Below the pieces are notes generated by a model, which was not told the DNA's origin, made no database searches, and worked only from the letters and a program-made list of their open reading frames with translations. The position numbers were made by a program, and so were the translations under genes. Shown in pieces: positions 3,928-64,000 of a stretch of DNA of 64,000 bases. Positions within the stretch are counted from its first letter, which is position 1, and each line of letters begins with the position of its first letter. The stretch comes from Eledone cirrhosa (Eukaryota), in the NCBI GenBank assembly GCA_964016885.1, contig OZ024740.1, positions 166,098,001 through 166,162,000 on the forward strand. The letters run 5' to 3'.

Positions 3928-4033
3928 AACAAGTAAGACCCCGACGGCTGAGCTCAAGCCGTTTCGACGGCTAATTCAGTCCAGAATTAGCCGTCGAAAC
4001 GGCTTGAGCTCAGCCGTCGGGGTCTTACTTGTT
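3928..4033. repeat. Perfect inverted repeat with 50-bp arms and a 6-nt loop, built from the 3' half of a hammerhead ribozyme
   Basis: 3928-3977 is the exact reverse complement of 3984-4033. The right arm reads GAA-ACGGCT-tgagctc-AGCCGT-C. Confidence 0.9.
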
Positions 4034-5506
4034 TCTATTACCCACAGTATTGAGTACTTTGGTGCGTTATGGTCCACCTGGTTTCTTACCACATTTCCTT
4101 CGTTATATATATATATATATATATATATATATATATATATATATATATGGGTGTGTGTGTGTTTGTGGTTTCGTGTCTATCATATGGCATGTACTTATAG
4201 CACATACGGTCATTATCTGTGCTGGTGTCTATAAATATACTCATGTCTGTGTTTCATCCCTGTGTGTAGATTGATGCGCAGGAGCGTGTATGCATGTATG
4301 TGTAAAGTGACATTTTTTAATACAACGTTTTAATAATTAACAATAATCAATTACATTTCTTTATTTTCCTTTTAAGTGTAATTTCTAATCTGAAAACAGT
4401 GATATTATATAGCTAACACTAATATTTCTTATTTACTGCCCATGAAGATGCACGTCTATATGCATACGAATGTGATGTGAGAGCAACATTTGGAAATATT
4501 CAATTATGTCAATGTACACAAGTATGTGTGTGCATAAGTGAACGAGAAAAAAAAACCTGTCTTCAGTTAAATTATTAAAAAACAAAAGCTAAGATCTCTA
4601 TTACTCTCAAAGTAATAAATAAAAGCAAAACAATGAATAATGCAATTCTATATAAAATATGTCCGGAAAAGATTAGGGTGAAGTATTCATGATTAGAATG
4701 CCTTTAGTCAAGAATGATCATGTATTTAAAATATCATTGATAATTCTGATAAATAAACGTTGTTCTGAGACTACAGCCCGACCACAACGGCAATATATTT
4801 ATACAGCTATACCTCTAATCAGCACGAAACAGAAAAAGAAGGAAAGTGTGTGTGAGAGAGAGAGAGAGAGAGAAGAAGGTTAACAGACTGGAGTGAGAGA
4901 TAAAAACGTGTGTTTGTATATATCTATATATAGATACTAATGTGTTCACTGAGAGTGTATTCCTGTAAGAGAGTAGACGAAGAGTGAGATATAATTAAAC
5001 ATAAAATTCTAGTGTATTACCAAATAATTAACTTAATACGTTGTAAATTATGTTCTTTTATTATTTATGTAAACTAAATGGACGGCAATTGACTTTACAC
5101 AATCTTGTAAAATTAGGTTTGTAACAGTTATATAATCAATAATCTCTATACAAAATAGCATGCTGCTAAATGAGGACAAATCGTTAAAAGTCAATAAATT
5201 CTATGCTAACTGATACGAGGCTTAATGGAGATAAATCGTTAAGTTTACGGTGAATGTCGCAAATTTTTAAAAGGTTATGGATATGCCAGTGATGTAAAAC
5301 CATTTCTGGACTTCGTTTTCACAAGCGTTTGATAAGGCTTGCCAAATTTAAACACCGTCATTTGTCGAGGAAAGATGTGAGTTCAAATAAACACTTGTTG
5401 GTGTTACTTTGTTCCTTACCACACCTCCTTCATTATATATATATGTGTATGTGTGTGCGAATAAAAATTGTTATCTCTGATCGAGACGAAACGGGGGTAT
5501 ATTTGA

Positions 5507-5930
5507 ATTCATAGAAAAATGAGAAAACTCATCGCTAGAATATCTGTTAAAGCAATCAAATGCTATCAATAACAACGATGGACAAAAATGCCTCAGAGAT
5601 CAGCGGGCAATCGTTGAAACAGAGACAATCCATGAGGTGGGTGACAGGTAGATGAAATATAGAAAAAAATTAGAGAGGAGGAGGACAAGGAGAAGTGTGT
5701 TGACGCAAAAAAAGAGACTGGAAGGCGACGTATAAGACAATTTCTCTCATACACACATTTTCATCCTCACCAGGTCTCAAACCAACAAAATGGTTTGCAC
5801 GATTTAATTAAGAGTAGCATTGGCCGCTGGTCACTGTCCTCTGAGGCATTTTTGCCCATCGCTGTCATTGACAGCATTTGGCTGTTTTAACAACTGTTCT
5901 AGTCATGTATTTTCTCATTTGTCTTTGAAT
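5507..5930. mobile_element. Fold-back element with about 105-bp diverged inverted repeats
   Basis: 5507-5611 (aaatgagaaaa...caaatgct...cgatgg..aaaaatgcctcagag) pairs with 5819-5930 in reverse complement. Confidence 0.7.
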
Positions 5931-6202
5931 ATATATATGTATAGATACATTTGTGTTGTGTGAGTATGCATGAGTTTGCGAGTGCGCGCTTATAGTTGAA
6001 CCTATGTATTTACAAATGTGATTAAAGTAGTTAATACATCGCAGATTGTGTATACTTTATGAGAAACTGGAGTATATATTCAATACAATATTTGAGATCA
6101 TCTTCCCGATTTGTATATATCAAATTCTAAAATCTAATAACATGTAATACGTTAATATTTGTCGTCCTCATATCATATATAATTTTCTTTTAATCTTTGC
6201 AG

Positions 6203-6350
6203 ACCACTCCTGGATTTCGGATCAACAAAAAATTGGGAACTTTATACATCGCCAATGCCCAAGCCGAGGATAGTGGCAGCTATGCATGCGTCGCCAATAC
6301 TACAGGGCAACCTCTAGTAGTCTCCAGTCGAGCATATTTAACTGTAAAAA
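6203..6350 (+). CDS. PTK7: PTK7/off-track-like exon (C-terminal half of an Ig domain); first exon visible in the window, upstream exons lie outside
   Basis: Acceptor tttgcag|[52 protein letters not shown] contains the Ig DxGxYxC motif; donor A|gtaagt (phase 1). Confidence 0.9.
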
Positions 6351-62034: not shown

Positions 62035-62441
62035 GAGAGATGACCCCTTAGCCTTTGTCAAGGCAGAATTCTAGGAGAAGGAAAACTCTGATATAACACC
62101 TGCAACTCTGATGGTATCCAATGATGTTGACTTGTTCTTCTTTTTGGTAAATATCATCTTGTTTAAGAGAGTGGGACTGGCTTTGTGCAGTGCCTTTGCT
62201 CACTATAAAAGCTTCACGGCACAGGCATTGCTTTATATCTGGAGATCTCTCTGTACCTGTCATCACATGGTACCATGGGCCCAGCACTGTATCAATAATT
62301 GTCACAAGTGTAGTGTTTGTACCAGAGTTTTCAAGTCGCTGGCTGGACTAAAAAGTCACACTCGTTCAGCGGATCGGTAGGGGTTCTCCTACATGGATAT
62401 AAAGTTGTGGCCGTACTCGAAAACGAGTTGGCAGCCACCAT
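62035..62441 (+). mobile_element. 5'-truncated copy of the RTE-derived element
   Basis: Only a few substitutions relative to 60001-60407. Confidence 0.9.
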
Positions 62442-62499
62442 TTATGAATGTATGCTTGCCCGTATGTATGTACATATGTATGTAAGTACGTATCTATGT

Positions 62500-62960
62500 A
62501 CATAGAGATCTTGGAACCCAAATTATATTGTGTCCGTGTGAACGGTTCGTTATATGCTGTTTCCGCACGGAGTGTAATGTTGAATGATATTGAAACTTGG
62601 GCACTGGATGTAAAGTGTGTGAGATGGCTAGGAAGAAATGAAATGAAGCTAACAAGCTCTCTAAAACATAGTTGAGATCTGCAAACAACTAGGTATAATA
62701 AAAAATTATATCTAGTGAGAAAGAAAGAAGACTCTGTTGGTACGGACACGTGATGTGTACGGTAGGTGTTGAAAAGGCCCGTGTTCGGCGGATTGGAAGG
62801 AAACAACAGAAAAGAAAGAGTAAGAAAACCTGGACAGACATCCGAAATAATGTTCACAGAAAGTTGAACAACACAGAAAGAAAACTGTGGTGGAGAAGAC
62901 TCATCGAATCTTAGCATGTATGGCAAGGCAATAATTACAAATGTTGTTGATGATGCTTCT
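62500..62960 (+). mobile_element. RTE-clade LINE 3' coding remnant
   Basis: LYAVSARSVMLNDIETWAL (similar to R..MLYGSETW) and WYGHV. Confidence 0.7.
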
Positions 62961-63164
62961 CTAACTATTGTTTATAGTCATCGACTTTTGTATCAGTAAT
63001 TTTCTGCGTTTGGGACTTTCACATTTTCAAATTTCAAATACTCCAAGCGTATCATGAAGCACAGTATATACATATATATATGTCTATGTATATATATATT
63101 TATATATATATATATATATATATATATATATATATATATATATATATATATATATATATATATA

Positions 63165-64000
63165 GTGGTAGAACACTGGAAGGTAATATCCGTAGTGGTA
63201 GAGCACTCAGCCCAAGGGACGAGTTAGCCCATACCGAGAACAATTGTTTCACCTTCGCGGATCTTCAGCTCGGGATGTGTGTGGTTATAGGAACAGGAAG
63301 GACAACCGTACGAACGCAGGCTCTTCATACAGGCAATACTAGACTGCATGCGGGGGTATGTGTGTAAGGGAGATATCTGCGAAAGTCCGGAAAGTTTTTT
63401 TGTTGAAAATAAAATAAAAAAATAAAATTACAAAGAATCAGTCCGGAGCCTTGTAGTTATGCAATAGATGTTTGGTGACGTGTGGACAACGTGTGAAAAA
63501 TTCACTTCTCGTGTTTAGGCAATCACTATTGCGTAATCTCTTTAGGATAGTTATTCGTTCGTCAATACATAAGCCACACGTCGGATTTCCTCTTGCGTAT
63601 GGCTTGGACATAGTGATGGCTTTCCATTGAATGGAGTACCTATAGTTGAGTCTTTGAGGGACCATACGTGGCTCGCGAGTTTCGTGGACGAACGTCTGTC
63701 CGGGTATCTGAAGTTAGACTGGTGGTTCAGGAAACGCTCCTTGAATCGGCCCTCCGCCATACCCGCATAGGATTTGACCTCCTGTGGTTCGTTTGGTCGG
63801 TTGGAAGTGACCACAGCTTGATAGATTGCAGCTTGTGTGTTGCATTGTTGTTGAAGGAGGCAAGCTTCGGGCTTACCGCAAGAGGACCCTGGTGGGGTGT
63901 TGCTCCTAGGGCTGCTGGTGATGTGGGCCTTCATGCTCTTAGCGCAGGAGTATCCTAGTTTAACTTTGTGTCGGTTAAAGATGGAGCGGTATTTATGATC
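63165..64000 (-). mobile_element. PLE 3' end: GIY-YIG domain with a Cys-rich C-terminus (different clade from the Neptune copies) plus pseudo-LTR; continues beyond the window
   Basis: IFNRHKVKLGYSC, AIYQAVV...SYAGM..RFKERFLNHQSNF...TKLASHVWSLK, then after a frameshift IQWK...CGLCIDE...LNTRSE...CPH. Confidence 0.88.
63234..63273 (-). ncRNA. Minimal hammerhead ribozyme in the PLE pseudo-LTR
   Basis: CCGAG-CTGAAGA-tCC gcgaa GGt-GAAA-CAATTG-TT-CTCGG: 5-bp stem I, palindromic ACAATTGT in stem III, GUU triplet. Confidence 0.78.

Follow-up and report, generated by a model that had tools for sequence, protein, structure and literature searches.

The stretch analysed here, a window of 64,000 nucleotides (nt) from Eledone cirrhosa (contig OZ024740.1, positions 166,098,001 to 166,162,000), lies within the introns of a gene with immunoglobulin (Ig) and tyrosine-kinase exons and is rich in (TA)n microsatellites; the genome measures 3.0 Gb. 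The 7-mer GAGTRCY, hereafter the box, occurs in it 18 times, six times within short inserts for which an earlier note on this DNA had proposed a conserved cis signal of Penelope-like elements (PLEs) that target TA microsatellites. Each insert matched at least 40 places in the genome, and all six are ends of multi-copy repeats. We conclude, with a probability of roughly 0.7, that the box is an arm of a predicted hairpin likely positioning the element's reverse transcriptase (RT), and that the inserts are PLE ends, with three families tied to open reading frames (ORFs) of the Hydra clade.

The six boxes lie at 4052-4058 (+), 10775-10769 (-), 16914-16920 (+), 26817-26811 (-), 43930-43924 (-) and 63208-63202 (-); all were thus present with the polarity described earlier, and only the two plus-strand positions had been off by one base. 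From the end of the box to the next (TA)5 run we measured, in the same order, 45, 42, 39, 52, 75 and 37 nt. The claimed distance of 35-46 nt to an AT microsatellite therefore holds in four of the six inserts and fails at 26817, where a short (CA)n is interposed before the TA run, and at 43930, where the copy, which carries a deletion of 16 nt, stops 21 nt past the box (37 in its family) in a degenerate AT run.

The predicted structure is a bulged RNA hairpin, RCTC-stem-(2-nt bulge)-GAGY-RCY, with the box as its 3' arm. Its arms enclose an inner stem that differs from family to family and, on the 3' strand, a bulge of 2 nt (1 nt in families A and F). Each family has two termini, a short end and, about 55-90 nt beyond it, a long end, with the box between them. 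The optional extension from one to the other, which comprises one hairpin unit, is the known PLE tail, described as such in the available text of PMC8557442 and PMC3846280.

Within the window, a family C insertion in (TA)n forms an inverted repeat (3926-4103), recognised from the sequence and from family copies; its left arm (-) stops at the short end, its right arm (+) has the tail and stops at the long end, both contain the 3' half of a hammerhead ribozyme, and hairpin 1, whose box is at 4052-4058 (+), has lost its 5' arm through a 12-nt deletion. Hairpin 1 of family D (10769-10796, -), with an ACTC arm, TT bulge and GAGTACT, sits in a 5'-truncated tail fragment (10727-10810) and is matched by a model built from other organisms (E 0.054). 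The family B end (16838-16959, +) comprises a hammerhead 3' half, hairpin 1 and a long end at (TA)n; this hairpin (16899-16920, +; ACTC, 3-bp inner stem, TT bulge, GAGTACC) is the top window match of the same RNA model (E 0.003). In the family E tail fragment (26768-26859, -; box 26817-26811), truncation has removed the 5' arm; family E in general has an inner stem-loop of 42 nt. The family F end (43903-44026, -) consists of a hammerhead (44026-43977), a decayed hairpin 1 (box 43930-43924) and a long end after the 16-nt deletion. Most copies of this family have one extra base in the hammerhead core (CUGA-NU-GA; 44021-44014, -). Hairpin 1 of family A (63202-63224, -; ACTC, 4-bp inner stem, 1-nt bulge, GAGTGCT; long end 63165) follows a type I hammerhead, read from the sequence (63234-63273, -; 5-bp stem I, CUGAAGA core, palindromic stem III), and this copy is indeed joined to a GIY-YIG reading frame, a frameshifted C-terminal endonuclease (EN) fragment (63438-64000, -) of a Hydra-clade PLE whose full-length copies have the Hydra motifs. 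By eye, a hammerhead or its 3' half precedes four boxes, as had been stated: it is whole at 63273-63234 and 44026-43977, and only the 3' half is present at 4052 and 16914.

Members of the motif also occur outside the original six. Two carry GAGCCCT, at 17171 and 17032 (-): a family M5 hairpin (17165-17208, -) with a compensatory GCTC/GAGC outer stem and a TA run 35 nt on, and a second M5-type copy (box 17032-17026, -). The site near 36311, which had been set aside as a chance occurrence, is a true member, namely a family M10 hairpin (36311-36338, -) with a 6-bp inner stem, a TC bulge and a TA run 79 nt on. The remaining 11 of the 18 window GAGTRCY sites were not assigned to the motif. Rfam families gave no match at gathering score in the window, nor for 63165-63460, and an E-value scan of the whole window returned only microsatellite-driven microRNA models among the best 150 of 495 matches. 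The inserts are less dissimilar than had been thought, as the tails of 63208 and 43930 cluster together and so do those of 4052 and 10775; the tails at 16914 (B) and 26817 (E) are each separate. They are not six copies of a single consensus: there are several families, and the box is conserved across them.

The enrichment of the box before TA runs was borne out beyond the window. In a random sample of 80 evenly spaced 10-kb stretches (800 kb) from elsewhere in the genome, with 1034 TA-run flanks, 30 boxes lay at 30-49 nt, compared with 1.9 expected from the 110-289 nt bins of the same flanks. Ten of the 30 sit at exactly 45 nt, nearly all of them family C, and the P value overstates independence because box copies belong to families. 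The same bins contained 12 boxes of reverse polarity, part of them because GAGTACTC is palindromic. Among 21 multi-copy clusters of boxes near TA runs, 13 have the 5' arm, four are reverse readings of palindromic boxes and four have no arm; of the singletons, 45 of 50 lack the 5' arm.

The two arms vary together. ACTC lies 8-55 nt upstream of 41 of the 53 GAGT boxes near TA runs, and GCTC upstream of six; at the GAGC boxes near TA runs the proportions are reversed (GCTC in 15/25, ACTC in 1/25), while control boxes far from TA runs have the matching arm in 24/230 (GAGT) and 19/147 (GAGC) cases. Further sequences came from a protein search (1799 relatives at E <= 1e-30) and, for DNA of other species, from one metagenome scan, which gave 80 loci at 34-44% protein identity. 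A strict hairpin descriptor found the motif in the 5' region of 26 of 63 metagenome loci, in none on the antisense strand and in the ORF windows of two, with 0.55 in shuffles. Hairpins for the pairing test were chosen by their anchors alone, the inner stem being ignored, and inner positions 1-4 of hairpin 1 were paired in 30, 26, 23 and 20 of 30 distinct sequences with the 2-nt bulge, with no excess at bulge lengths of 0 or 3. With one hairpin 1 per 70%-identity cluster, the counts were 24, 21, 19 and 14 of 24, a sum reached by none of 5000 permutations. The metagenome box of hairpin 1 is GAGCACT in 28 of these 30 sequences, and the bulge is TT, TC or TA in all 30. A MAFFT alignment misplaces the inner stem, and a covariation check there covers five pairs only, four of them invariant and one with 6 double changes. 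Compensatory changes occur in both the outer and the inner stem. A covariance model built from the metagenome hairpins only matched the window copies at 16914, 17171, 36317 and 10775 (E <0.06) and missed four that are damaged or have a 1-nt bulge; in the random sample, 34 of its 47 matches at E <= 1 have a TA run within 85 nt, versus 14% of positions. The proposal of a conserved cis signal stands for Hydra-clade elements, not as a lone 7-mer but as the arm of a base-paired hairpin.

Hydra-group PLEs of several animal groups carry this hairpin twice, each copy a few bases beyond one insertion end. Both copies lie in the 5' untranslated region (UTR), between the hammerhead and the start codon. 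Of 69 metagenome 5' regions, 36 had two exact boxes and 13 had one; the spacer separating box 1 from arm 2 measures 33-56 nt (median 38) in the metagenome loci, and in 31 of 33 the first ATG follows box 2 after 12-42 nt. In this genome the two-box pattern matched 925 times and its reversed control 269 times. In four families, 156 TA-bounded ends were counted, a set whose loci were enriched through targeted searches and from which 28 non-TA ends were left out; 148 of them begin 0-14 nt, mostly 6-8 nt, before an arm, distances that include 2-3 nt of TA common to element and target. Three references do not enter this count: a satellite (L307) in its two readings, and L297, a match by chance with 12 of its 13 ends off the arm rule. 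Family C ends 8 nt before hairpin 1 (45 copies) or 6 nt before hairpin 2 (58 copies). Metagenome 3' copies mapped on their own 5' copy agree: of 16 ends that reach flanking DNA, 12 lie between -5 and +8 nt from an arm, where 1.85 would be expected. Families M6 and M10 (L315, L319) have an extra box about 50 nt upstream of one lying 73-80 nt before the TA run, and may carry three hairpins.

The interval of about 40 nt, earlier read as possibly a spacing ruler, is instead the length of the spacer to the second hairpin, which lies just past the insertion end and is not copied. A box-to-TA-run ruler is ruled out, as these distances range by family from 31 to about 80 nt while the distance from the end to the next arm stays at 0-8 nt. 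The inverted insertions combine the two ends in a strict manner: the random sample contained 10 long+short and one short+short cases, no long+long and four unclassified, and all genome loci together gave 52, 3, 0 and 18, respectively. The insert at 3926-4103 is one of the long+short cases.

Given its place before the ATG, the hairpin pair could serve translation or transcription, through operator-like self-repression or an internal promoter, the ends adjoining it only because copying halts at the bound protein or at the stem; an internal promoter of Penelope has been placed in this region in the available text of PMC8557442. Yet family B, in which no ORF was seen in the copies read, retains hairpin 1 in 32 of 32 clustered copies, the ends follow both hairpins within a few bases, and the strict long+short pairing is not predicted by such a role. 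We regard this explanation as rather improbable, and a promoter role of the box is disfavoured. Alternatively, the pair might have no function, being an ancestral duplication kept by descent, with ends set by nearby UA microhomology alone. Some of the families are related and a TA or TAT stretch precedes most ends, as this would have it. But the arms and bulge are near-invariant among elements at 34-44% protein identity whose inner stems and flanks cannot be aligned, both stems have changed in a compensatory way, and AT-rich microhomology is found everywhere in these UTRs, yet the ends are focused. Such an absence of function seems to us very improbable.

The elements themselves were classified from family A, whose full-length copies have an open frame of 722 codons in a hammerhead-to-hammerhead unit of 2577 nt (locus L211). 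With domains read from motifs, its layout is a single ORF of RT followed by a C-terminal GIY-YIG EN, in an element of less than 3 kb. The frame has RWR near the N-terminus and DKT in place of DKG (L211, L213), as well as YRDD; a CxCX5C linker is present, and the EN has CxxC and CxH but no CCHH (translations of L213, L216 and L214). The Hydra clade, as defined in the available text of PMC8557442, includes RWK near the N-terminus, the change of DKG to DKT, the CxCX5C linker, CxxC and CxH in the EN and the absence of CCHH; since the motif set of family A matches this definition, family A is, on its translated motifs, a Hydra-clade PLE. The CCHH of the EN and the DKG that characterise Neptune, Nematis and Poseidon are missing from family A, and, unlike in Naiad and Chlamys, which have an N-terminal EN and no canonical hammerhead, its EN is C-terminal and a hammerhead is present. 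Pfam gave no match for the EN fragments or the full ORFs, and neither did a PDB sequence search. In the Hydra-type families a canonical hammerhead lies in the pseudo-long terminal repeat (pseudo-LTR), recognised by eye and by descriptor, not by Rfam, and the insertions are in (TA)n. Copies of families C and F have a Hydra EN or RT upstream, other F copies have Hydra RT-EN there, and Hydra ORF starts are reached by internal copies of four families, C (by way of hairpin 2), M19, H4 and one related to E. Families A, C and F are on this evidence tied to Hydra-clade ORFs. The family C hammerhead (L298, L304, L317, L320) shows an apparent U3-A8 core variant (UUGANAA) with a long stem II, and a U3-A8 variant is described for Schistosoma in the available part of PMC4209133. 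Family B, of about 600 nt, looks non-autonomous; one of its copies (L332) extends past the long end to a box and the beginning of a Hydra ORF. The family is SINE (short interspersed nuclear element)-like, with the same 5' start after a (TG)n stretch in five of five copies printed or partly printed (L342-L362).

In eight other hammerhead families of this genome, none of 42 copies has the motif, which limits it to the clade; the broader claim, that the box is a signal of TA-targeting PLEs in general, is ruled out by these families, among them the box-less, TA-bounded H3. The hairpin motif is Hydra-specific. Among the published Hydra consensi (PMC8557442 File S7), by eye, the motif follows the hammerhead in Hydra-2_Amil and Hydra-2_Ajap, stands twice at the 5' start of Hydra-1_Ajap and takes the form of GCCC/GGGC variants in Hydra-1_Crog; an exact 9-mer search of the 584-kb archive gave 7 matches, four in those Hydra consensi and three inside other sequences. 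The motif is thus readable in published Hydra consensi from coral and sea cucumber. Family H3 (window 12200-12540), with a hammerhead, two TA-bounded ends about 55 nt apart and a CCHH-type EN in other copies, is a candidate for a different end signal.

How the hairpins might act can be outlined as follows. The RT-EN would bind the hairpin in RNA, recognising the fixed GAGY-RCY arm and the bulge while the inner stem is free to vary, and would nick (TA)n; the 3' end of the target DNA would pair with a UA stretch of 2-4 nt just 5' of the hairpin, and the RNA would be copied upstream from there. As the guiding hairpin itself would stay uncopied, short ends would be left without a box and long ends with hairpin 1 and the spacer, which in turn would give the tail and the pattern of box, 40 nt and (TA)n. 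A dimer on the two hairpins, with its two protomers priming both target strands, would yield the head-to-head structure; a long end would require an RNA in which hairpin 2 lies downstream of element sequence, as in a tandem or circular transcript, or a template jump. That this holds clade-wide, with a twice-repeated RT-positioning element in which each hairpin recruits one RT-EN protomer and directs priming to a site a few bases 5' of the hairpin, both (TA)n strands being primed from one 5' UTR, has in our view slightly better than even odds.

The same ends could arise if the motif acts as DNA, the GIY-YIG EN recognising it in new complementary DNA (cDNA) or in a donor copy and cutting beside it, so that the two ends would reflect resolution by the EN rather than two priming sites. 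The available text of PMC8557442 ascribes the tail to EN-mediated resolution, and the D. virilis tail is reported to be needed for EN recognition of plasmids (PMC11167929). On the other hand, the spacing of the arms is variable (inner length 9-26 nt, up to 42 here), which ill suits a double-stranded site; at positions 2-4 of hairpin 1, G-U pairs outnumber A-C (12 versus 3), an excess that favours the sense strand, while first-strand cDNA is antisense; and in Poseidon_Ac (PAc) both ends coincide with RT start sites in vitro (PMC11167929). We consider a DNA site unlikely.

Several points weigh against RT positioning by paired hairpins. Priming and cutting cannot be told apart from end positions alone, and the proposed binding and priming steps are drawn from the PAc work and from geometry. 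Four of the 16 mapped and eight of the 156 TA-bounded ends break the rule, and 20 of the 69 metagenome 5' regions, many of them apparently truncated, have no exact box. The inner pairing of hairpin 2 is weaker (reached by 126 of 5000 permutations), the permutation tests disregard relatedness below the 70%-identity clustering cut, and folding energies are ordinary (z -1.8 to +0.8). No canonical hairpin 2 was seen at the family A long end in four of four internal copies, where the only pairing that can be drawn has a long loop and involves a box about 95 nt beyond, and no intact hairpin 2 of family B was found among 14 pattern matches. Families B, D and E are not linked to an ORF, none being seen in copies of D and E, while an E-related family has a Hydra ORF. 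Moreover, the Hydra-1_Obim and Hydra-1_Amil consensi show no clear motif by eye.

Other features of the window touch these elements less directly. A decayed Neptune-like PLE (17400-20300, -), with a zinc-finger linker and a CxxC within GIY-YIG, precedes a hammerhead at 17519; this family, which is without the hairpin, has another hammerhead at 24796 (+). At 26660-26760, a B-type element (hammerhead 26692, +) borders on the family E fragment with its short-end arm, the two being separated by a single TA run; independent insertions accumulate in the same microsatellites. Kilobase-long degenerate (TA)n arrays, which assembly may inflate, occupy 12539-16836, 37777-39805 and 53480-57854. Host exons with Ig and tyrosine-kinase domains span 6194-49681..50304 (+). 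The host gene is presumably PTK7/off-track-like.

The element class, the hammerheads, the (TA)n targeting and the tail were known already. Neither the hairpin pair nor the end rule turned up in the open literature searched, with subscription journals, Repbase reports and figures beyond its reach, in term searches of PMC8557442 and of the preprint bioRxiv 10.64898/2026.07.22.740005, or in the available part of PMC4209133. The pair appears to be a previously undescribed, cis-acting RNA element of a known clade; it likely has a role in the choice of RT start sites, and the hairpin defines an RNA family missing from Rfam. The in vitro study (PMC11167929) placed the RT starts, not what specifies them, and a hairpin 3' of each end offers exact mutations. 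PLEs are the closest mobile relatives of telomerase, and at issue are the choice of internal start sites and the origin of tailed inverted insertions. Element ends become predictable from sequence through the hairpin, which is useful for annotating abundant invertebrate repeats. If the proposal is true, the PLE tail and the head-to-head insertions gain a sequence-level cause, and a portable signal of about 30 nt could direct a telomerase-related RT to any upstream RNA.

The hepadnavirus epsilon is a bulged RNA element that templates protein priming from its bulge. The likeness is one of working, as epsilon, located close to the 5' end of its RNA, folds into a stem-loop to which the polymerase binds and which determines where copying starts (PMC3346311, available part); there is no sequence kinship, and here priming is proposed to be by target DNA outside the hairpin, which is present in two copies. 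Non-LTR retrozymes, in the available text of bioRxiv 10.64898/2026.07.22.740005, are likewise hammerhead-bearing, PLE-derived non-autonomous repeats, and family B is alike; they form tandem arrays, whereas the elements here are single or inverted ends in (TA)n, and the terms tail, hairpin and stem-loop were not found in that text. With the Hydra clade as published (PMC8557442), our elements share the single short RT-EN ORF with the clade motifs, the pseudo-LTR hammerhead, the (TA)n targets and the inverted 5'-truncated arm. The main text of that paper has no hairpin, stem-loop or bulge (0 matches), though its consensi contain the motif; in the genome studied here many families coexist, together with a short non-autonomous one. 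In PAc, the tail is bounded by two RT start sites, and a dimer is predicted for the protein (PMC11167929). The hairpin motif was not found in the PAc RNA stretch of Fig. S1 of that paper, in whose text two short look-alike units stand about 35 nt apart around the start sites. Other PLE clades may use a repeated element too. Both systems have two ends with an optional tail between them, starts downstream of a hammerhead, an AT-rich target and a predicted dimer; the PAc tail, however, is 30-40 nt inside the ORF and the RT starts there fall in an AC-rich stem-loop, whereas the tail of the present elements comprises about 55-90 nt of 5' UTR, and immediately 3' of each end, a putative start, lies a separate conserved hairpin.

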